Shown piece by piece: positions 4,331 to 46,991 of a stretch of 64,000 bases of DNA; the stretch's first letter is position 1, and every line of letters begins with the position of its first letter. The stretch lies in the NCBI GenBank assembly GCA_964460615.1, contig CAYWPX010000010.1, positions 1,252 to 65,251 on the forward strand. The letters run 5' to 3'. The translations under genes were made by a program, and so were the position numbers. Under the pieces are notes generated by a model. That model was not told the origin of the DNA and searched no databases. It worked only from the letters and a program-made list of their open reading frames with translations. Source of the DNA: an uncultured Planctomycetia bacterium (GTDB lineage: Bacteria > Omnitrophota > Gorgyraeia > CAYWPX01).

Positions 4331-4376
4331 TTAGCTCATAGTTCATGGCTCATGGCTCATAGCTCATAGTAACTCC
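4331..4376. repeat. Short dispersed leader motif TTAGCTCATAG(TT)CATGGCTCATGG / CATGGCTCATAGTAA in the 5' leader of the giant gene. Related copies lie at 17011-17063 (macB leader) and inverted at 4843-4868.
   Basis: Direct sequence comparison of the three loci; each is immediately upstream of a minus-strand start codon. Confidence 0.5.
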
Positions 4377-4383
4377 TAAAAAA

Positions 4384-4820
4384 CTACGATACAGAGCTTT
4401 TTATAGACTTAATCAAACTTGAAAGCATTTTCCCTATCTCGTTACCCGATTCTTTAAATTCATCTAACTGTAAATCGCTTATCCAACCTTTTTTATTGAA
4501 TATAACTAACAACGTTACTAATTCAAATAGCGAACCTCTTGCTATATATAAATATTGAATAAATTCTTTTTTGGAATATCTACCCTTTCCCTCTGCAATT
4601 CAAAGAATTGCGAGGACTTTAGTCCCGGAAATGCTTTGCATTTCTCGGGGCCCTCTGCAATATTTAAAGCTATAGAAGCGGCAGAAGATTCAAGTTGCTC
4701 AACAAGTCTAAAATGCTTTCTATCGGTTGTTATCTGATCTGTTAAATCTATAACTCTTTTAGAGAAATCAACTGCCTTTTTCCAAACCTCTAAATCTTCA
4801 AAGCTATATTTAACTGTCAT
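4384..4820 (-). pseudogene. Four-helix-bundle protein (23S rRNA intervening-sequence protein family), disrupted by an insertion that shifts the frame.
   Basis: The N-terminal part (listed ORF 4542..4820) reads ...FEDLEVWKKAVDFSKRVIDLTDQI...ALNIAEG. The family C-terminus KGRYSKKEFIQYLYIARGSLFELVTLLVIFNKKGWISDLQLDEFKESGNEIGKMLSSLIKSIKSS continues in another frame down to a stop at 4384. Removing the 62-nt insert restores NIAEGKGRYSKKEF in frame. Confidence 0.65.
4600..4661. mobile_element. 62-bp insertion inside the four-helix-bundle gene. It is flanked by an 11-bp direct repeat CCCTCTGCAAT (4589-4599 and 4651-4661) and contains two small hairpins (gtcccggaaatgc/gcatttctcgggg and ggact/agtcc).
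   Basis: The direct repeat was read directly. Insert length 62 is not a multiple of 3 and explains the frame change between the N- and C-terminal halves of the host gene. Confidence 0.5.
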
Positions 4821-4871
4821 TATTAATATTTTCTTTTGCTATAAACCATCAGCCATGAACTATGAGCTAAC

Positions 4872-8446: not shown

Positions 8447-8508
8447 AATTATTCTCTCTATTGTTTTGTTCCTTGCTATCAGCTGTCAGCCTTCAGCCCT
8501 TCCTACAA

Positions 8509-8572
8509 GCGAGGCAGGCCCGCCTGCGCAGGAATGACAAATACTTAATTTATTTTTTCTATTACCCTAACC
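8509..8572. repeat. Partial copy of the GC-rich palindromic element family (…GCAGGAATGACAAATACTTAATTTATTTTTTCT…)
   Basis: Shares GCGAGGCAGGCCCGCCTG and the GGAATGACAAAT + AT-rich tail with the elements at 9864-10066, 13501-13960 and 48404-48548. Confidence 0.5.
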
Positions 8573-9785: not shown

Positions 9786-9863
9786 CTATTTTGCCTCCTT
9801 GTGTGTCTATAACTTATTGTAATTAAATCTATATTGTTTATTTACTTTCTTTTTTTATTTTAT

Positions 9864-10066
9864 GGATTCCCGACAAGTAACCTCGGGAATGACAAATAGC
9901 ATATGGCGTTTCTGGATTTCCTTAGGAATTTTATGATTTAAAATTCCAAGGACCAGGGCCCGCCTAAACCACGCGGGAATGACAAATGCTTAATTTACTT
10001 TTTTTCTTCCAACCTAAACCCACTGGATTCCCGACAAGTACACTCGGGAATGACAGATAACATATG
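9864..10066. repeat. Three adjacent GC-rich palindromic elements (GGATTCCCG[A/C]C-loop-G[A/C]GGGAATGACAAAT followed by an AT-rich tail). The middle one embeds the GGAATTTTATGATTTAAAATTCC hairpin typical of the MITE-like family.
   Basis: Read directly; inverted repeats and shared 40-nt tail ATGACAAATGCTTAATTTA(C/T)TTTTTTTCTTCCAACCTAAACC. Confidence 0.6.
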
Positions 10067-13500: not shown

Positions 13501-13960
13501 CTGGGTTTCCGCCTTCCCTTCACAAAGACTGGCGGGCAGGCGCGGGAATGACAAATGCTTAATTTATTTTTTTCTTCCAACCTAAACCTTCTGGATTCCC
13601 GCCAACCAAATGCGGGAATGACAAACCATGAAATTTTCGCCTGCGGCGAGACATAAAAATGCAAAGGATCTTTGGGGTAATTTCTTGTCATTCCTGAATG
13701 GTTCAGTCAGGAATCCAAGTTTTATTTCTTGTTTTCGCTTTTCTTCTGGATTCCCGCCTAAAACTTGCGGGAATGACAAATGCTTAATTTATTTTTTTCT
13801 TCCAACCTAGACCTTCTGGATTCCCGACTAAAGATCTCGGGCCTGCCTGCTCGCCTCGCGGCGAAGCCGAGGGCCGGCAGGCAGGTATGACAAAAAGAAA
13901 AAATACTGGATTTCCGCCTAAGGCGGACAGGCCCGACTAAATCTTGCCTGCCTAAAAAGG
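13501..13960. repeat. Cluster of at least 5 GC-rich palindromic elements of the CTGGATTCCCGCC-(variable loop)-GCGGGAATGACAAA family. Some are followed by the 40-nt tail TGCTTAATTTATTTTTTTCTTCCAACCTAAACC; one is in inverted orientation (…GTCATTCCTGAATGGTTCAGTCAGGAATCC…).
   Basis: Read directly. Repeated units start at 13501, 13591, 13746, 13816 and 13908; the nested hairpins are GC-rich in an AT-rich background. Confidence 0.7.
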
Positions 13961-14042
13961 CAGGTAGGATATTTTTGAAATACTCCCGCCCACAAGGGCG
14001 GACTTTCGCAATTCAAGTCAAGCGAAAGGTCAGGGGATCTAT

Positions 14043-14129
14043 ACTCCGCATCATAAAATATCACAAAAATCCCTTACTTGTTGCCTATACCGGCAACAAG
14101 ATAAGATATTTTTGTGATATTCTGCGGAG
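14043..14129. mobile_element. MITE-like element, copy C. Terminal inverted repeats CTCCGCATCATAAAATATCACAAAAAT … ATTTTTGTGATATTCTGCGGAG.
   Basis: TIRs read directly. Same family as 19929-20084 and 25795-25917, with compensatory changes keeping the TIR complementarity. Confidence 0.55.
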
Positions 14130-14162
14130 TGGCAAGTGCTTATTGATTAATAAGCACTTGTC

Positions 14163-19663: not shown

Positions 19664-19873
19664 TCAAACGGTTTTCGGCAAACGGATATTTGTAGCAAGA
19701 GGCCCCTTATCGGTCTTCTCCACTTCAAATTCAACCTTCTGGTCTTTTTTCAGGTCAGTCATCCTGACATCAATAAGGCTACTTTGGTGGAAAAATATTT
19801 CTCTGCCGTCTGTAGCACTGATAAACCCGAATCCTCTGTCGCTGACAAGTTTCTTTATGGTTCCAGTATGCAT
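19664..19873 (-). CDS. Cold-shock protein (CspA family)
   Basis: RNP1/RNP2 motifs KGFGFI, IFFH. Confidence 0.9.
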   Translation of the reverse strand: MHTGTIKKLVSDRGFGFISATDGREIFFHQSSLIDVRMTDLKKDQKVEFEVEKTDKGPLATNIRLPKTV

Positions 19874-19928
19874 GGCGCTCCTTAAGTTATATATCTTGGT
19901 TAAATCGCTGGTTTCTTTAGCTACGTTA

Positions 19929-20084
19929 CCCTACTTCGTAACATATCGTAAAAATTTCTACCTCGAGAAATCATAAAATGATTTCCGAGACTAAGTCCTT
20001 GGAATTTTATTATTTAAAATTCCGAAGGGCCCCGGAAATCTAAAAGATTTCCAGGTGGCGATATTTTTACGATACTCAGTAGGG
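19929..20084. mobile_element. MITE-like element, copy A (~156 bp). TIRs CCTACTTCGTAACATATCGTAAAAAT … ATTTTTACGATACTCAGTAGGG; internal hairpin GGAATTTTATTATTTAAAATTCC.
   Basis: Read directly; lies in the promoter/5' region of csp gene 19664..19873. Confidence 0.6.
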
Positions 20085-20132
20085 TTGATTAACTCGCAAA
20101 TTATAATTTTATTTATAAAAAAGCGAGTTAAT

Positions 20133-20173
20133 CAAAAAAAATAGGGCCTAGCGTTTTGGTAAGCGCTAGACCC
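20133..20173 (-). terminator. Rho-independent terminator of csp gene 20190..20390
   Basis: Hairpin CTAGCGC/GCGCTAG followed by TTTTTTTT on the minus strand. Confidence 0.5.
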
Positions 20174-20189
20174 TATCTTAATAACTAGA

Positions 20190-20390
20190 TTATAGTTTTA
20201 CTACATTAGTTGCCTGTTCACCCTTTGGGCCTTTTTCAATGTTGAACTCAACTGACTGACCTTCTTCTAATGATTTAAAACCTTCACCCTTAATAGCTGT
20301 ATGATGTACAAATACATCCTTTCCATTTTCTGGAGTGATGAATCCATAACCTTTGCTATTATCGAACCACTTTACTGTTCCTTTTGTCAT
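20190..20390 (-). CDS. Cold-shock protein (CspA family)
   Basis: KGYGFI, VFVHH motifs; strong SD AAGGAGG upstream. Confidence 0.9.
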
Positions 20391-24822: not shown

Positions 24823-25746
24823 TTAGGCTCCTAAAATGGCAAATATTACTGCAACAATCCCCAAAACAAAGGCAAACCCGAGAAAATCCGCTACTCTAAA
24901 TAATCTCATCTTCGCTAACGACACCTCAACCAATGCCACTATGATAGCGATAATGGCAAATCTGGCTACATACCATAAAATCCAGTATATAAAATCGGCG
25001 GAATTTAAAATTTCAGGGACGTTGATAGGAAAAATTATCTGGGCTATGATAAAGAATAGGATCAGCTGCTTTATGTATGAAGATATTTCCAGTAAAGCTA
25101 AACTCCTGCCGGAATATTCCAGGACCATCGCCTCGTGTACCATAGTAAGCTCCAGATGCGTCTCCTGATTGTCTACAGGAACTCTAGAAGTCTCAGCTAT
25201 AGTTATAAGAAATAAGGCGATTGCGCCGACTATGGATGCTACTGATATCCCGTGCATACCGCTAAAGGCAGCTAAATTCGTCGAACCAAACTGCAATGCC
25301 ACAGAAAATACCACTAAACACATCACCGGCTCAGCTAAGCTTGATATGAACATCTCCCTTGATGAGCCCATTCCCCCGAAAGAACTTCCCGTATCGAGGG
25401 CCGCAAGGCATAAGAAAAATCTTCCAAGAGAAAAAATAAATATAAGCGCAATAAAATCCCCCATATGGTTCAAGGGGTTGGTAAAAATAAAAATCGGGAT
25501 AAGAACTGCCGCAGTTAAAACGGAGGAAAAAACCATATAAGGCGCGATTCTAAACACCCAGGAAGCGTCTTTAGAAATAACCTCATCTTTAGAAAATAAT
25601 TTGACGAGGTTAAAATACGGCTGCAAAACACCCTGGCCTATGCGCATTCTGAGGGTATTTTTGACCTTTGTTATAAATCCGCTTAGTATAGGTGCTGCCA
25701 GAATAAAAAAAGCTATCTCGATTAAAACTAAAAATATATTTTTCAT
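24823..25746 (-). CDS. NuoH / HycD-like membrane subunit
   Basis: N-terminus …APILSGFITKVKNTLRMRIGQGVLQPYFNLVKLFSKDE… matches the NuoH/HycD signature. Confidence 0.8.
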   Translation of the reverse strand: MKNIFLVLIEIAFFILAAPILSGFITKVKNTLRMRIGQGVLQPYFNLVKLFSKDEVISKDASWVFRIAPYMVFSSVLTAAVLIPIFIFTNPLNHMGDFIALIFIFSLGRFFLCLAALDTGSSFGGMGSSREMFISSLAEPVMCLVVFSVALQFGSTNLAAFSGMHGISVASIVGAIALFLITIAETSRVPVDNQETHLELTMVHEAMVLEYSGRSLALLEISSYIKQLILFFIIAQIIFPINVPEILNSADFIYWILWYVARFAIIAIIVALVEVSLAKMRLFRVADFLGFAFVLGIVAVIFAILGA

Positions 25747-25794
25747 ATTGAATCTCTTTTTGGGTTTTAACCCGGAGCTTCTTTCATGTATGAT

Positions 25795-25917
25795 CCCGCA
25801 TCGTAAGATATCGCAAAAATTTCTTCCCCGATAATTCCGAAGAATTTTCGGGACTAAATCTTTGGAATTTTAGGATTTAAAATTCCTAGGGGCGATATTT
25901 TTGCGATACTCTGCGGG
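25795..25917. mobile_element. MITE-like element, copy B. TIRs CCCGCATCGTAAGATATCGCAAAAAT … ATTTTTGCGATACTCTGCGGG. Inserted in the intergenic gap inside the Ehr operon.
   Basis: Read directly; same family as 19929-20084. Confidence 0.6.
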
Positions 25918-25973
25918 ATAATCTATCTTGCATTAATTCCGGGCTTAAAAGCCAGGAATTAATGCAATATAGA

Positions 25974-27821
25974 TTAGAACCTGCCCATAAATACAATTAA
26001 TAATATCAGTGTCATAAAAATATAAGCGAGATACAGATGAATAGACCCCGGCTGAATACGCCTTGCGTACTTGGCCAATTTAAAAATCAAACTAAGCATC
26101 GGCTCATATATATACTCTTTAAAAACTTTGGTAGTATGCGTTTCATATCTAAAAGATTTGACATAATAGAAAGACTCTCTGATCTTTTGTGTTTTGCGGT
26201 AGGGCAAAAGAAAAAAACTGAAAGCGATCCTGAATGGCTTTGAAAAAGCCGTAGCAGTATATTCATTCCTCGGGTCAAGCTTATAGTAACCGCAATCCCA
26301 TGTTTTATATATAACGGCTTTTTTCCTTTTAAACATATACAGCATTACTCCTAATAGCCCCGTCGCTACCAGCACAATCGCAAGTATCGGTAAAGATAGA
26401 TAAATATCTGCCCCCGAAACCTGCGGATTAGCCTGCAGACTAATAATAAAATTATTCGGAGTAAAACTCATATTACTTATATCAACCCCGGCAGAAAAAC
26501 CCGCTATCTTACTAAGCATCTTTATAATGAATCCCGCCGCTAAACCAAGAAGAATTACAAGTACTGATAATATTGCCATAGATATCCTCATTGATATCGA
26601 TACCTCTTTGGCGTCTTTAGCGTTTCTACTTCTTGGCTGGGCAAGAAATATTATCCCGAATGCCTTGATAAAAGTGGCTATGGCTAAACCACCTGTGAGA
26701 CAAAGTAAAGATGCTACTATGCACAAAAATAGTTTCGTGCCGCCCAAAGTGTTAAGAGCCCCCAGGAAAAATGCCTGCAAAGTTAACCACTCGCTGACAA
26801 AGCCATTTAAAGGCGGTAAAGCTGATATCGCCATTACTCCTACCAGAAAATAAATAGCGGTCTGGGGCATCCGCTTTATAAGCCCGCCAAGTTTTTCCAT
26901 ATCGCGAGTTCCGGTAGCCTGGTAGATACTGCCGCTGCCTAAAAATAGAAGGCCTTTAAATATTGCATGATTCACGAGGTGATATAGCCCGGCTATTAAA
27001 GAAAAGATTGCAAGATATGGCATATTTATGCTCATAAAAAATATTGCCAGCCCCACTCCAAGCAGGATAATCCCGATATTTTCAACACTTGAATAAGCCA
27101 AAAGCCTTTTTATATCTTTTTCCATGAGGGCATATATGACACCCACTAAACATGTGAATGTAGCAAGTATGATTATAAGAATTCCCCACCACGAAGCGCC
27201 CACTCCGAGTATGAAGATAACAAATCTTATAAGCCCGTATATTGCGGTTTTGATCATTACGCCTGACATGATACTTGAGATATGGCTTGGAGCCTGCGGG
27301 TGGGCATATGGCAACCAGATATGTAAAGGCACAATGCCTGCCTTGGTGCCAAAACCTACTACAAGCAGAAGAAAAACTGCATTCCTGATATTCTGCGGCA
27401 TAAGCATACAACCACTTTTGATGCTTAATAGATCGAACGAACCGGTATATTTATAAAGAATCATAAAAGCAGCTATTAAAAATGCTGTTCCGATATGAGT
27501 CATTATTATGTATATTGTACCCGCCTGAATAGATTTTTCATGGGTGGAGTCAAACACGACGAGAAAGTATGAAACGAGTGACATGATCTCCCATATTACA
27601 AGAAAGAAGATAATATTTTTAGCCGTCACAACTAAACACATCGAGATAACAAAAATAATCATTAGAACCCATGCTAATAGGATCTTTGAACTAGGGTAAT
27701 CTTTTTTGAGGTAGCCGATAGAGTATATGGCGGATGGGATCGATACAATAGCAATCGCTATCAGGAAAAAAACTGACAGTGGATCAACTAAAAACAGTTT
27801 TGAAATACTTTGAAAATCCAT
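25974..27821 (-). CDS. NuoL / HyfB-like antiporter-type membrane subunit
   Basis: 615 aa, polytopic, WLPYAHPQAPSHISSIMSG…LLAYSSVENIG motifs. Confidence 0.8.
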   Translation of the reverse strand: MDFQSISKLFLVDPLSVFFLIAIAIVSIPSAIYSIGYLKKDYPSSKILLAWVLMIIFVISMCLVVTAKNIIFFLVIWEIMSLVSYFLVVFDSTHEKSIQAGTIYIIMTHIGTAFLIAAFMILYKYTGSFDLLSIKSGCMLMPQNIRNAVFLLLVVGFGTKAGIVPLHIWLPYAHPQAPSHISSIMSGVMIKTAIYGLIRFVIFILGVGASWWGILIIILATFTCLVGVIYALMEKDIKRLLAYSSVENIGIILLGVGLAIFFMSINMPYLAIFSLIAGLYHLVNHAIFKGLLFLGSGSIYQATGTRDMEKLGGLIKRMPQTAIYFLVGVMAISALPPLNGFVSEWLTLQAFFLGALNTLGGTKLFLCIVASLLCLTGGLAIATFIKAFGIIFLAQPRSRNAKDAKEVSISMRISMAILSVLVILLGLAAGFIIKMLSKIAGFSAGVDISNMSFTPNNFIISLQANPQVSGADIYLSLPILAIVLVATGLLGVMLYMFKRKKAVIYKTWDCGYYKLDPRNEYTATAFSKPFRIAFSFFLLPYRKTQKIRESFYYVKSFRYETHTTKVFKEYIYEPMLSLIFKLAKYARRIQPGSIHLYLAYIFMTLILLIVFMGRF

Positions 27822-36426: not shown

Positions 36427-36473
36427 TCCTTATATTGTATTATTGTAATAATGCGATATTAATTACAAAAGAA

Positions 36474-36740
36474 TTATTTCTTTAATACCCTTAGAAGTTT
36501 CTCTACTCTATCATCAACCACCTTATAGCAGCACTTGACCCCATCTTTTTTGGTAGCAACGATGCCTCTATTTTTTAATAATGCGAGGTGCTGGGAAATA
36601 GTGGATTGAGGCAACTTTAAACCTCTTACTATCTTATTCACGTTACATTCGTGGTTTAAAAGCCCCTCGACAATTTTGAGCCTGACCGGATGGCCAAGGG
36701 CCTTAAAAAATTCGCTCTCTTTATTATATTCTAAACTCAT
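36474..36740 (-). CDS. arsR: ArsR/SmtB family transcriptional regulator
   Basis: wHTH ALGHPVRLKIVEGLL…STISQHLALLKNRGIV, C-terminal CC pair. Confidence 0.85.
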   Translation of the reverse strand: MSLEYNKESEFFKALGHPVRLKIVEGLLNHECNVNKIVRGLKLPQSTISQHLALLKNRGIVATKKDGVKCCYKVVDDRVEKLLRVLKK

Positions 36741-36813
36741 TTAGATCACCTCTATCGTATTATTACGATAATACAATATAAAATAATTTTTGTCAATACT
36801 TATTTAAAAGTAT

Positions 36814-44117: not shown

Positions 44118-46991
44118 CTATAAAGGCAGTACAAAATGGAACTCTGAACCCTTACCTGACGGCGAGGCAGGCCCGCCTGACGGCGAGGCAGGCCCGCCTG
44201 ACGGCGAGGCAGGCATTGATTCAGCCCATATTTTACCTTTGTGCTGATCTATGATCTCTTTACATATCGCCAGCCCCAAGCCGGTCCCGGACGTTCTTTT
44301 TTCTCTCGTTGTATCAAGCTGTTGAAAGCTCTGAAATAATTTGCCCATGTCATTAGGACTTATCCCCGGCCCGGTATCCTTGACTATTACATGGATCGAA
44401 TCCGGATCTTTTTTTGCTATTATTTTGATACTCCCTTTATCTGTAAATTTGGCGGCATTATTTACTAGATTCGTAAGAACCTGAGTAATCCTATCTTTAT
44501 CAAATTTGAATATTGGCAGGCCATCCTCAACTTCTTTCTCTAAAATAAGCCCTTTTTCTTTAGCCACCAAGTACATAGACTTAGAGACTTCGTTTATTAC
44601 TGAGTATATATCATTTTCTATGATCTCAAACTGCATCTTTCCTGATTTAAGTTTTTGGAAATCAAGCACATTATTAACCAGCCGATTAAGCCTGTCAGCG
44701 CTGTGCCTAACCGTACTCAAAAGATCTCTCTGCTCTTCATTTATATCGCCCGTTAACCCGTCCAGAATAATGCTTACGCCTTCTTTTATAGGCGTGAGAG
44801 GAGTCCTTAACTCATGCGACACCATAGATATAAAATCTTCTTTTAGCGCCACAACTTTTTTCAGCTCATCTTCAGCCTTTTTGAATAAAGTAACATCTCT
44901 CACAGTAGCTTGCAGCAATATCCGGTCCGCGATCTTAATTTTTGAGAGAAGTACTGTCGCCGGAAAAACCCTCCCGTCGATAGTTTTATGGATCCATTCA
45001 AAATAATGCGAGCCTTTCTGAAGAGCTATAAATATCATCTTCTTTGCCTTGATCTCCGACAAAATACCATCCGGCTGATATTCAGGAGAAAGGATTGCCG
45101 GGCTCGTTTTGGCGAATTCTTTTTCATCTGCGATATTAAATAATTTAAGGGTGGCAGGATTAGCTTCGATAAAATTATCGTCAGGGTCAAGAATCATAAT
45201 AGCATCCGAAGAAGAATTATATAGAGTTTTATATTTGGCTTCGCTTTCCAGAATCGCATCTTCAAGTTTTTTGCGATCAGTAATATCCCTGCAAACGCCC
45301 ATAATACCCTTAAATTCTTTGTTCGTCGAAAAAACCGCAGCTGCGCTTACGTCTACCCAAAATGTAGAGCCATCTTTGCCCAAAACTTCAAGCTCAAAAC
45401 GTTCTATAAGATTTATTTTTTTGTCTTTTACCCTTTGCATAATATCATTAAAAATATTTTGGGCGGCAATTTTTGAGGAAGGGGTTAATACATTTTCAAA
45501 AGTACTGCTACCCTCAAACTCGGGGGCAAAACCTATTTGACGCCTTGTGGAAGGGCTTGTATAGATAAATTTACCGGATGAATCAAGTATCCAGACCATA
45601 TCATTGGCATTATCGGCAAGCAAGCGGTATCTTTCCTCGCTCTGACGCAATTTTTCCGAGTCAATGATCCTGATCTGAGAAACAACAAAATATATGCTGA
45701 ATATTACAAAAACAAAAATAACTACAACAATACCATAGATCCGGAAGCCATAAACATAGTGATCCCATAGTTTCTTGGATATATCTATACCCAGAACCGC
45801 TATGATTTTTTCTGTACCAAAGCTTCTTATCGGCACAAAAGCCGAAAACCATTCCCCCCATTCATCCTTATACGGCCCGGCAACAACCTCCTTACCGTTT
45901 TTAAAAGTATCCAACAGAACTATCGGATAATTTTTATAAATATCCCCCGGTTTAGCATAATCTTTAGAGCTTTCCGGCTCGGCATCTACATAGAAAAAGA
46001 CCTCTTTATCCCTTATGCCCATAAGATAAACAAATTTCTGGTTTAATCTGGCGTGGCGGATATGAGTCAACTGCTCTTTAAGCCTAATAAAATCATCTGT
46101 AGTTTTATCAGCCTCGGTTCCGGTAAGCGTAAGTATACGACGGGGATTGACCGCTGACGAAGCAATGCGCGTATTTATCAATAAACTGTTACTGTACTCA
46201 TTTTTAGCATAAATACCTATCTCTTCCGTAATAACCCATCCAAAAAATAAAATCGACAAGAAAACCACTACTACAATATACTTTTTACTTATGTTATTTC
46301 CGCTAACAGGCAATATGTCCGTTGACCTGAAATAAAACCAGAGCACGACCGCCGCCAGAATACTGAGCACGGCCCTAAAAAGCTGTATCGGAACTCCTGT
46401 AAAATCTTTGAAGGTTTGAATATTAATAAAATACGCCGGAGCAAATTTTCCTACGGGAACGATCATCTGGGTAAAAGCATATAATATAATGATAAGCCCC
46501 AAATAAATAAAAAGCTTGTCTACCTGTTTGCCGGATTTGACGGCCTTGGGACGCGTCGCTATGGCCGCTCCTGCCCATACACCGCCAAGAACTCCAAAAA
46601 AATAACGCGAAAAAATATTTACGCCGGTTGCTCCTTCTATTACCCAGCCAAACGCCAATATAAGAACCATCGGAACATAGATCCATCTTCCGAAAAACTT
46701 GCCTGACCTTGCTTGCTGGCTACTCCGTCCAAGCTCAAATAGGCACATAAAAGAAGCTGCCAAGAAAAAAAGCCGGATATTTTTGAATATATCACTATCG
46801 CCGATACTAACGCTGAACATATCAAGCCATTCATTAATACCGTGCAAAAAACCAAAGAGCCCGAGCCATTTCCAGATAGGTTCGTTTTTTTGTGATTTAT
46901 ATAAAAAAAACGAAGCTATGGATAATATAAAAAATCCCAGGCCATAGACAAAAAATATATAATCCATCTGTTCAGCAAAAAAATCACTCAT
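44118..46991 (-). CDS. Membrane-bound sensor histidine kinase (TM N-terminus, extracytoplasmic sensor, PAS, HisKA, HATPase) with a C-terminal GGPASPS x3 insertion
   Basis: H-box SHELRTPL, N box LTNLVNNAAKFT, G boxes DTGPGI / GTGLGL. Confidence 0.85.
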   Translation of the reverse strand: MSDFFAEQMDYIFFVYGLGFFILSIASFFLYKSQKNEPIWKWLGLFGFLHGINEWLDMFSVSIGDSDIFKNIRLFFLAASFMCLFELGRSSQQARSGKFFGRWIYVPMVLILAFGWVIEGATGVNIFSRYFFGVLGGVWAGAAIATRPKAVKSGKQVDKLFIYLGLIIILYAFTQMIVPVGKFAPAYFINIQTFKDFTGVPIQLFRAVLSILAAVVLWFYFRSTDILPVSGNNISKKYIVVVVFLSILFFGWVITEEIGIYAKNEYSNSLLINTRIASSAVNPRRILTLTGTEADKTTDDFIRLKEQLTHIRHARLNQKFVYLMGIRDKEVFFYVDAEPESSKDYAKPGDIYKNYPIVLLDTFKNGKEVVAGPYKDEWGEWFSAFVPIRSFGTEKIIAVLGIDISKKLWDHYVYGFRIYGIVVVIFVFVIFSIYFVVSQIRIIDSEKLRQSEERYRLLADNANDMVWILDSSGKFIYTSPSTRRQIGFAPEFEGSSTFENVLTPSSKIAAQNIFNDIMQRVKDKKINLIERFELEVLGKDGSTFWVDVSAAAVFSTNKEFKGIMGVCRDITDRKKLEDAILESEAKYKTLYNSSSDAIMILDPDDNFIEANPATLKLFNIADEKEFAKTSPAILSPEYQPDGILSEIKAKKMIFIALQKGSHYFEWIHKTIDGRVFPATVLLSKIKIADRILLQATVRDVTLFKKAEDELKKVVALKEDFISMVSHELRTPLTPIKEGVSIILDGLTGDINEEQRDLLSTVRHSADRLNRLVNNVLDFQKLKSGKMQFEIIENDIYSVINEVSKSMYLVAKEKGLILEKEVEDGLPIFKFDKDRITQVLTNLVNNAAKFTDKGSIKIIAKKDPDSIHVIVKDTGPGISPNDMGKLFQSFQQLDTTREKRTSGTGLGLAICKEIIDQHKGKIWAESMPASPSGGPASPSGGPASPSGKGSEFHFVLPL
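44153..44212. repeat. 21-bp tandem repeat x~3 (CCTGACGGCGAGGCAGGCCCG) inside the kinase coding sequence, encoding PASPSGG repeats
   Basis: Read directly; the unit shares GAGGCAGGCCCGCCTG with the intergenic GC-rich palindromic element at 8509-8530. Confidence 0.7.

Follow-up and report, generated by a model that had tools for sequence, protein, structure and literature searches.

Results

Three copies of module E in the window

The DNA analysed here, called the window, is a 64 kb stretch of contig CAYWPX010000010.1 from an uncultured bacterium of the phylum Omnitrophota, and the subject of this work is a hairpin-forming repeat, designated module E, that occurs in it three times, always in the same orientation. 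Copy B lies in a 227 bp gap between the stop of a hyfB-like gene (Proton_antipo_M, 25974-27821, minus strand; stop at 25974) and the start of a hyfC-like gene (NADHdh, 24823-25746, minus strand; start at 25746), as a preliminary description of this DNA had reported. The places given there for the three copies were also confirmed, with limits of 19928-20085 for copy A, 25793-25919 for copy B and 14042-14131 for copy C, all on the plus strand. The window was scanned, with filters off, using a covariance model built from 21 copies of E. Copies A, B and C scored 72.6, 85.7 and 74 bits, respectively (73-86 bits, E-values 1e-18 to 1e-21), against 15 bits for the next-best match in the 64 kb.

The three copies share one build, consisting of an outer stem of 8-9 bp, an asymmetric internal loop, an inner stem of 12 bp (TATCRYAAAAAT/ATTTTTRYGATA) and an interior that varies between copies, with three hairpins in A, two in B and one in C. 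In copy A, the outer stem is formed by 19928-19935 and 20078-20085 and the inner stem by 19944-19955 and 20063-20074, with TCGTAACA (19936-19943) facing CTC (20075-20077) in the internal loop; the interior (19956-20062) consists of loop remnants, TTCT...CGAT, and three nested hairpins. In copy B, the outer stem occupies 25793-25800 and 25912-25919, the inner stem 25809-25820 and 25897-25908, and the internal loop TCGTAAGA (25801-25808) faces CTC (25909-25911); two nested hairpins stand between TTCTT and CGAT. Copy C has an outer stem at 14042-14050 and 14123-14131, an inner stem TATCACAAAAAT at 14059-14070 and 14108-14119, the internal loop TCATAAAA facing TTC, and a single nested hairpin at 14077-14100 that has no second example in the window. 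The internal loop is asymmetric in every copy, with TCRTAANA (8 nt) on the 5' side and YTC (3 nt) on the 3' side, and the arms of E are therefore no simple inverted repeats.

The left and right ends of each copy had been described as changing together, and this held for the inner-stem triplets of copies A, B and C (cgt/acg, cgc/gcg and cac/gtg). The outer stems co-vary as well (ACCCTACT/AGTAGGGT, ATCCCGCA/TGCGGGAT and TACTCCGCA/TGCGGAGTG). Low complexity fails to explain this covariation, because the variable positions sit outside the A/T run. The folds predicted for the copies greatly exceed those of shuffled sequences in stability, with z-scores of -6.5 to -11.3 as RNA and of -6 to -12 as single-stranded DNA (ssDNA).

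Distribution and minimal form of the family

Left-arm patterns were used for two scans, one of species-representative genomes and one of JGI metagenomes. The first pattern was loose, with about 90% of its matches arising by chance in A/T-rich genomes; true copies were those with a matching right arm, and the remaining matches were chance ones. The covariance model R1 confirmed 33 copies of E, 27 of them distinct, so that the further copies proposed to be sought beyond the window do exist. In both scans, true copies occurred only in Omnitrophota, plus one metagenome-assembled genome (MAG) labelled Ca. Auribacterota. The carriers include Ca. Velamenicoccus archaeovorus LiM (complete genome) and Ca. 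Omnitrophica CG11, and at least seven copies were present in one MAG mislabelled Planctomycetia. No copies were found in viral contigs, phage records or plasmid records. The Rfam 15 covariance models, applied with gathering scores and with permissive E-values to the window and eight loci, gave no match on E, and we found no paper that describes the repeat. E is a previously undescribed family of small hairpin-forming intergenic DNA repeats, specific to Omnitrophota and close allies.

The members of the family are non-coding and 62-162 nt in size. Common to the approximately 27 distinct copies are a left arm of 20-25 nt and the matching right arm. In its minimal form (L085, L098, L119, L122, L127, L147 and L148), E is an imperfect hairpin of 62-64 nt with a conserved 9 nt apical loop, yTCTTCGAT, and this hairpin is the ancestral form. 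The basic unit has the inner stem TATCGnAAAAAT, the internal loop TCGTAAGA facing CTC, and the apical loop TTCTTCGAT. Its arms (TCGTAAGATATCGnAAAAAT) are A/T-rich and not self-palindromic. A core of 40 nt is near-invariant across lineages in which HyfC is only about 70% identical. Readings of the internal loop and three-way junction as a K-turn, loop E or hammerhead were tried, and no match to the consensus motifs was seen by eye; the three-way junction is absent from minimal E.

The variable inner-stem pair is G-C, C-G or T-A across distinct copies (A-T/C-G in copy C), and it is always paired in the minimal-form lineages and in the window. In the outer stems, homologous variants of AYCCYGCN occur, with substitutions that compensate one another. 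Since the covariance-model alignment misses a 1 nt indel in the outer stem, its pair counts are underestimates, and the outer-stem pairs were recounted by script. The covariation score exceeded those of all 500 of 500 column shuffles and of all slid registers; because the sequences are related, this result is supportive, short of decisive. G.T and A.C mismatches numbered 11 and 8, respectively, a balance that singles out neither strand as the folding strand.

The strand with TCGTAAGA was C-rich in 21 of the 27 loci that were at least 3 kb long (p = 0.006), and in about 17 against 5 after orthologous loci had been collapsed by eye; all three window copies follow this rule. With respect to the flanking genes, by crude calls of open reading frames (ORFs), 13 copies were antisense to both neighbours, 4 sense to both, 4 lay between convergent and 7 between divergent genes. 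The orientation towards genes is thus not strict, and the excess of antisense over sense copies (13 to 4) agrees with the strand bias.

Hairpins nested in the apical loop of E

All longer members of the family keep TTCTT on one side of the loop and CGAT, CGAA or GAT on the other, and at least five unrelated hairpins were found inserted at this one point between TTCTT and CGAT. They comprise an 18 nt GC hairpin in the Velamenicoccus-type copies, a different hairpin in L154, a further distinct one in window copy C, the set H1-H2(-H3) in window copies A and B, and yet another hairpin in L137. The loci L129/L155 contain a left half of E that is broken at the same loop point; a distant right arm for this half copy, which might have marked an autonomous element, was searched for and none was found. 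The appearance of copies A, B and C as terminal inverted repeats (TIRs) enclosing an interior is that of a hairpin struck repeatedly at its loop centre. The TIRs of about 25 bp that had been regarded as the ends of a mobile unit are instead the arms of an internal hairpin module, and the interior, rather than being cargo specific to the element, consists of other small hairpin modules at a single point of a loop that measures 9 nt in minimal E.

Some of the nested hairpins also occur elsewhere in the window. The H2 hairpin (GGAATTTTATTATTTAAAATTCC) of copy A (20001-20023) is the same module as 25864-25886 in copy B, and the hairpin GGAATTTTAnnATTTAAAATTCC is found exactly three times in the window, at 9925, 20001 and 25864, compared with 0.04 expected. 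The occurrence at 9925 belongs to a GC-rich REP-like unit (TGGATT...CCCGCC..GCGGGAATGACAAAT; 9919-9958, plus strand), and H2 therefore occurs independently of module E. The internal hairpin is thus shared with a GC-rich element near 9912-9960, as stated previously, and repeat families do form composites. H1 of copy B (+GGGACTAAA; 25826-25858, plus strand) has a homologue at 19960-19998 of copy A and an inverted one at 4618-4650, with 82% identity over 33 nt.

The inverted relative of H1 is part of a 51 nt module (4600-4650, minus strand) inside a PF05635 gene. The module is flanked by an 11 bp direct repeat, CCCTCTGCAAT, at 4589-4599 and 4651-4661. Deletion of 62 nt (4600-4661) in silico restores the full PF05635 ORF of 124 aa, which matches the profile with 110 bits over positions 1-105 of 106; the insertion is out of frame and the gene is disrupted. 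This shows an insertion of the nested H1-type module that is independent of E. In the second hairpin of the 51 nt module, the 5' arm CCTCGCAATTC pairs with the duplicated target ATTGCAGAGG, which means that the insert holds an inverted copy of its own target site.

PF05635 is the 23S rRNA intervening-sequence (IVS) protein, a four-helix bundle. The gene lies on the minus strand within 4331-4870, bracketed by 33 nt inverted repeats (4331-4363 and 4838-4870, 91% complementary), and this gene cassette may itself be a mobile unit.

Modular organisation around E

Alignment of the flanks showed that E is directly abutted by two further modules, a U hairpin on the 5' side, (A)TGAATCTCCCC[stem-loop]GGGGTTTCTTYCCTGGA, and a D hairpin on the 3' side, TAATC...GATTA(AA), the latter frequently with an apical CCCCGGCTTAAAAGCCGGGG hairpin between two TTC triplets. 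Genomes of the Velamenicoccus type have 0-4 M units, each about 45 nt long, between E and D. All loci keep the order U-[E]-(M)n-D, with each module directly adjoining the next, and the resulting mosaics of about 200-300 bp occur at unrelated intergenic sites of one genome. Mosaics at four unrelated loci (L004 and L040 from the same MAG, L120 and L143 from metagenome contigs) align from TGAATCTCCCC to GATTAAA with sharp ends and unrelated flanks. Their ends, (A)TGAATCTCCCC... and ...GATTAAA, show only a weak inverted match of about 6 nt. Target-site duplications had been suggested as a check; in the aligned loci, no direct repeat of 2 bp or more was seen at the boundaries of E or of the mosaics. 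The left flank is mostly CAA, GAA or TTA before TGAATC, with no conserved target tetranucleotide established.

The content of the mosaic varies. At an orthologous locus in two species (L047 and L115) the modules differ, an instance of module turnover, and mosaics without E exist (L118; L136, which is U-M-M-D). The E-less form of L118 (940-1040, minus strand) consists of U and TGACCCCGCA followed by TTCTGCGGCTCGATTA, as expected from a deletion between the CCGCAT of the E outer arm and the CCGCAT of D; this suggests that the E outer stem and the D stem are the same REP-like motif. The complex D of L004 (2733-2795), L040 (6326-6388), L115 and L154 equals a simple D (CGCCGCA-TTC-TGCGGC) plus a 24 nt hairpin, ATCCCCGGCTTAAAAGCCGGGGAT, and the TTC on either side of this hairpin looks like a 3 nt duplication of the D loop.

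In the window, a U-like module (GAATCTC-hairpin GGGTTTTAACCC-CTTCTTTCATGTATG; 25750-25790, plus strand) stands directly 5' of copy B and matches the U (TGAATCTCCCC[hairpin]GGGGTTTCTTYCCTGGA) of the Velamenicoccus-type mosaics. Directly 3' of copy B lies a D module with 28 nt arms (TAATCTAT..GGGCTTAAAAGCC..ATAGATTA; 25919-25976), a homologue of the TAATC...GATTA hairpins found as D after E in other lineages. The U-like and D-like neighbours of copies A and C have diverged: copy A is abutted by a variant hairpin resembling D (TTGATTAACTCGC...GCGAGTTAATCAA; 20085-20135), before the cspA terminator, and copy C by the hairpin CAAGTGCTTATTGATTAATAAGCACTTG (14133-14160) in the position of D.

Two functional roles of the modules were considered and rejected. 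U as a donor of ribosome-binding sites did not fit, since the flanking genes start at varied distances and have their own Shine-Dalgarno sequences. As for E or D being an intrinsic terminator, the T runs lie inside the inner stem, where 4-7 nt separate them from the nested hairpins; the D hairpins precede A runs, and a terminator scan gave only weak internal matches.

Copy B between the hyfB-like and hyfC-like genes

The entire 227 bp gap consists of the U-like module, E and D. The far arm of the D hairpin overlaps the stop codon of the hyfB-like gene, and the U-like module ends 4 nt before the ATG of the hyfC-like gene on the minus strand. In three relatives (L162, L163 and L164; HyfC 69-73% identical), hyfB and hyfC are 1-2 nt apart, and this tight junction marks the 227 bp insert as lineage-specific. 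No E was found in the combined 62 kb of these relatives, and the closest HyfC homologues reach only 74% identity, those with a named source being labelled Omnitrophica or Omnitrophota. For copy A, CSD homologues examined for an empty-site comparison gave no close relatives on useful contigs.

Copy B together with U and D would thus have inserted into a hyfB/hyfC junction of 1-2 nt and would have broken an ancestral tight coupling of the two genes, whose junction was probably translationally coupled before. Copy B would now be co-transcribed antisense, as a very stable hairpin cluster without a U-tract inside the operon, and it is not predicted to terminate transcription.

Genes beside E and the search for a mobilising enzyme

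The genes beside E are ordinary housekeeping genes that are functionally unrelated. In a Pfam search with 119 neighbouring ORFs, neither a recurrent neighbour family nor a transposase was present among the 25 families listed of the 121 matched. A cognate transposase had been proposed to be looked for; in about 0.46 Mb of element-bearing loci, we found no autonomous partner, no longer element with E arms and no neighbouring transposase. A phmmer search with Y1_Tnp proteins recovered only ordinary IS200 copies, none of them flanked by E. A link of E to the IS200-type Y1 transposase genes with CCCCGGGCTTCAGCCCGGGG hairpins in L162 (3934-4308 and 6298-6714) and L141 (7250-7657) was discarded, as the ends of these genes are unrelated hairpins and they do not lie beside E.

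Discussion

We consider it rather probable that E is a module of a mobile, non-autonomous, modular palindromic repeat of the BIME, BOX or REPIN kind. It probably spreads via a single-stranded hairpin intermediate. A trans-acting enzyme would recognise the folded single strand and copy the mosaic or its modules into further sites, with the conserved internal loop, inner stem and apical loop of E as the recognition determinants, and the mechanism would resemble the handling proposed for REP and REPIN hairpins by RAYT or IS200-type HUH enzymes. Such a mechanism is established for IS200/IS605, and these systems likewise have neither inverted termini nor duplications and display a strand bias.

Several observations weigh against this interpretation. 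No mobilising enzyme was found, and nothing RAYT-like (PF01797) was flanked by E in the scanned loci. The Velamenicoccus-type copies are often mismatched in the variable inner-stem pair (T.C, A.C or C.C) and some of their right arms are degenerate (CCTCTA), so that the hairpin is not uniformly maintained. A near-identical 40 nt core across very divergent lineages would also be expected from a function selected in the host. These data do not separate replication from transcription as the source of the orientation bias. Finally, the comparison of filled and empty sites, made with relatives as distant as 69-73% HyfC identity, shows a gain in the lineage, though not a single clean transposition event.

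The main rival to the mobile palindromic repeat is a functional structured RNA, or an ssDNA function selected in the host, by which E would, for example, stabilise mRNAs, mark a site of RNase III or RNase E processing, or bind a protein, with the apical region as a variable arm and the many copies as the outcome of selection for this task; we regard this as unlikely. It would account for the near-invariant core beside a HyfC of only about 70% identity, the covariation in two stems, the variable-length apical region at a fixed point, the co-transcription of copy B, which is unavoidable inside an operon, and the fact that E orientation is biased with regard to GC skew and to the direction of local genes; for ERIC and Correia repeats, effects on mRNA stability or on RNase III processing have moreover been reported (PMC2229807). 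It fits poorly with the occurrence of E in both orientations between co-directional genes (4 same, 13 anti) and at divergent and convergent sites, with G.T and A.C mismatches that lack a clear asymmetry (11 versus 8), with the many decayed or truncated copies, with the E-less mosaics and the patchy distribution, and with the absence of E from 62 kb of three relatives having the same operon. The lack of an Rfam match and the unrelated functions of the neighbouring genes also speak against it. Slightly less likely still is that E serves as recognition hairpin in an ancient system of replicator and host inherited across the phylum, either with a REPIN/RAYT-like partner or as a folded hairpin of ssDNA or RNA to which a conserved Omnitrophota protein binds, and that hairpin loops are preferred integration points for other hairpin modules. 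Three observations are consistent with it: the at least five inserts at the loop point of E, the TTC-flanked 24 nt hairpin in the D loop, and the hairpin that the PF05635 module forms from its inverted duplicated target. If true, it would imply a structure-targeted insertion mechanism that has not yet been described.

A classical miniature transposable element with inverted repeats (MITE), that is, a deletion derivative of a DDE-type insertion sequence whose TIRs of about 25 bp are bound as double-stranded DNA (dsDNA) by the parent transposase and which is flanked by target-site duplications, appears improbable. This reading, favoured in the preliminary description, remains sound in so far as E is a multi-copy, non-coding palindromic family of short elements with long inverted repeats and copy B is an insertion. 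One nested module in the window (4600-4650) does have an 11 bp direct duplication, and insertion sequence-family transposases have been reported in Omnitrophota genomes (bioRxiv 10.64898/2026.06.07.730766). The terminal repeats and the target-site duplication did not stand, because the inverted repeats are internal to the unit common to loci and no duplication was seen at the ends of E or of the mosaics. The minimal form is furthermore a plain hairpin with a 9 nt loop, which leaves no room for a remnant of a transposase gene; the asymmetric arms (8 nt versus 3 nt) co-vary to stay paired, which binding of dsDNA TIRs would not need; and no longer element with the same arms was found in the 0.46 Mb. 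'MITE-like' is acceptable as a loose label only, and the architecture fits modular repeats of the REP/BIME, REPIN and BOX type better. An array of dsDNA binding sites, in which ATCGnAA at about 10 nt spacing on both arms forms a palindromic operator of a nucleoid-associated protein or regulator, is very unlikely. The left arm does consist of a direct repeat of 10 nt, [TCGTAAGATA][TCGTAAAAAT], the internal loop read as its reverse complement is similar to the apical loop TCTTCGAT, and primary-sequence conservation is strong; however, a fixed dsDNA dimer site cannot be reconciled with arms that stand 9 to 107 nt apart, the compensatory changes indicate pairing over base readout, and the copies are found at gene 3' ends, inside an operon and upstream of genes. 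Chance similarity of A/T-rich, low-complexity palindromes, for which only the A5T/AT5 run of the inner stem could be quoted, has a negligible probability in view of the gap between 73-86 bits and the 15 bits of the best background match, the position of the co-varying sites outside this run, and the dozens of copies in other genomes that have a common 24 nt pattern.

With the modular palindromic repeat as the preferred interpretation, E can be compared with known systems. Like the REP, BIME and REPIN sequences of Proteobacteria, of which REPINs are hairpin-forming REP doublets and which RAYT (Y1/HUH) transposases mobilise, E is extragenic, non-coding and multi-copy, occurs in ordered palindromic mosaics, has no target-site duplication, includes decayed singlets or halves, and is inferred to be handled as a single strand. 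It has no sequence similarity to them, neither arm is a small GC-rich palindrome headed by GTAG, the loci searched contained no RAYT close to an E copy, and its core is conserved phylum-wide, whereas REP sequences are conserved at genus level; E is also optional in its mosaic. REPINs consist of conserved inverted ends and a spacer that form a hairpin with compensatory changes (PMC3116915), and E similarly has inverted ends and a less conserved spacer that fold into a long hairpin with compensatory changes.

Two other systems share features of placement and strand use. BOX elements lie between genes, fold into stable structures and are regarded as mobilised in trans, as is proposed for the E mosaic. 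In IS608, a member of the IS200/IS605 family, the ends are subterminal imperfect hairpins without inverted termini, no target-site duplication is made, and a strand bias is linked to replication. E shares with this family the bias at 21 of 27 loci and the missing target-site duplication; the IS200 copies in these contigs have different hairpins. Pneumococcal BOX elements (boxA-boxB(n)-boxC; PMC3049150) have fixed end modules and variable internal modules, comparable to U-[E]-(M)n-D here, while they belong to an unrelated phylum, have unrelated sequences and offer no counterpart of the asymmetric internal loop of E or of the nesting at its loop centre.

ERIC/IRU and Correia (NEMIS) elements, too, are imperfect palindromes, about 100-155 bp long and transcribed together with the genes beside them; an internal block, present or absent, gives rise to size variants, and effects on mRNA stability and RNase III processing have been reported for them (PMC2229807); they have terminal TA and target-site duplications, and Correia elements true TIRs, neither of which was seen for E. 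Rickettsia palindromic elements are small palindromic modules that land in coding genes, as the H1-type module does in the PF05635 gene; the insertion here is out of frame and disruptive, whereas the Rickettsia elements usually keep the reading frame and are tolerated (PMC2229807).

Little attention has been paid to the non-coding DNA of Omnitrophota, uncultured bacteria of mostly ultra-small size, some of them predatory. The E family inserts into operons and provides a phylum-wide marker sequence, and with an alignable minimal unit, nested derivatives and mosaics it is a tractable case for the spread of hairpin repeats. If a mobilising enzyme is found, the REPIN/RAYT paradigm could extend beyond Proteobacteria and Cyanobacteria. 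For now, the host is unusual and the genomic feature itself of an ordinary kind.

Other repeats and features of the window

A REP-like family, TGGATTCCCG-N11-CGGGAATGACAAAT, occurs at 9863-9897, 10024-10058, 13592-13626 and 13747-13781, with related copies at 8527, 9972, 13541, 13765 and 48444. It is clustered at 9.8-10.1 kb and 13.5-13.9 kb, and an A/T-rich tail (GCTTAATTTATTTTTTTCTTCCAACCTAAACC) often comes after it. Its stem resembles the outer stem of E, and a similar motif, CTGGATTCCCCGC, was found in L147. A GC-rich repeat, GGCGAGGCAGGCCCGCCTG, is present in tandem at 44147 and 44168 (44147-44200) and once at 8494 (8494-8526).

Positions 36430-36781 contain a pair of 29 nt inverted repeats, 93% complementary, that encloses 294 nt (TTATATTGTATTATTGTAATAATGCGATA...) and may be another small element. 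Diverged repeats of 39 nt (13 codons) with the motif CCAATTNAT form a long array from 1 to 2100, presumably within a large repeat-protein gene that runs off the window.

Near copy A, the cspA gene (20190-20390, minus strand) has a promoter-like site at 20600-20573, with a perfect -35/-10 pair and an extended TG, and a clear intrinsic terminator at about 20141-20178; a second CSD gene (19664-19873) follows after copy A. The cspA region gave a full-length match to the Rfam cspA thermoregulator below the threshold (55.8 bits versus a gathering score of 78). Logan short-read contigs of the window organism (L001 and L165; SRR12487046) were 8.8 and 12 kb long, and many CSD homologues were located on contigs of about 1 kb; we suspect that interspersed repeats fragment short-read assemblies.

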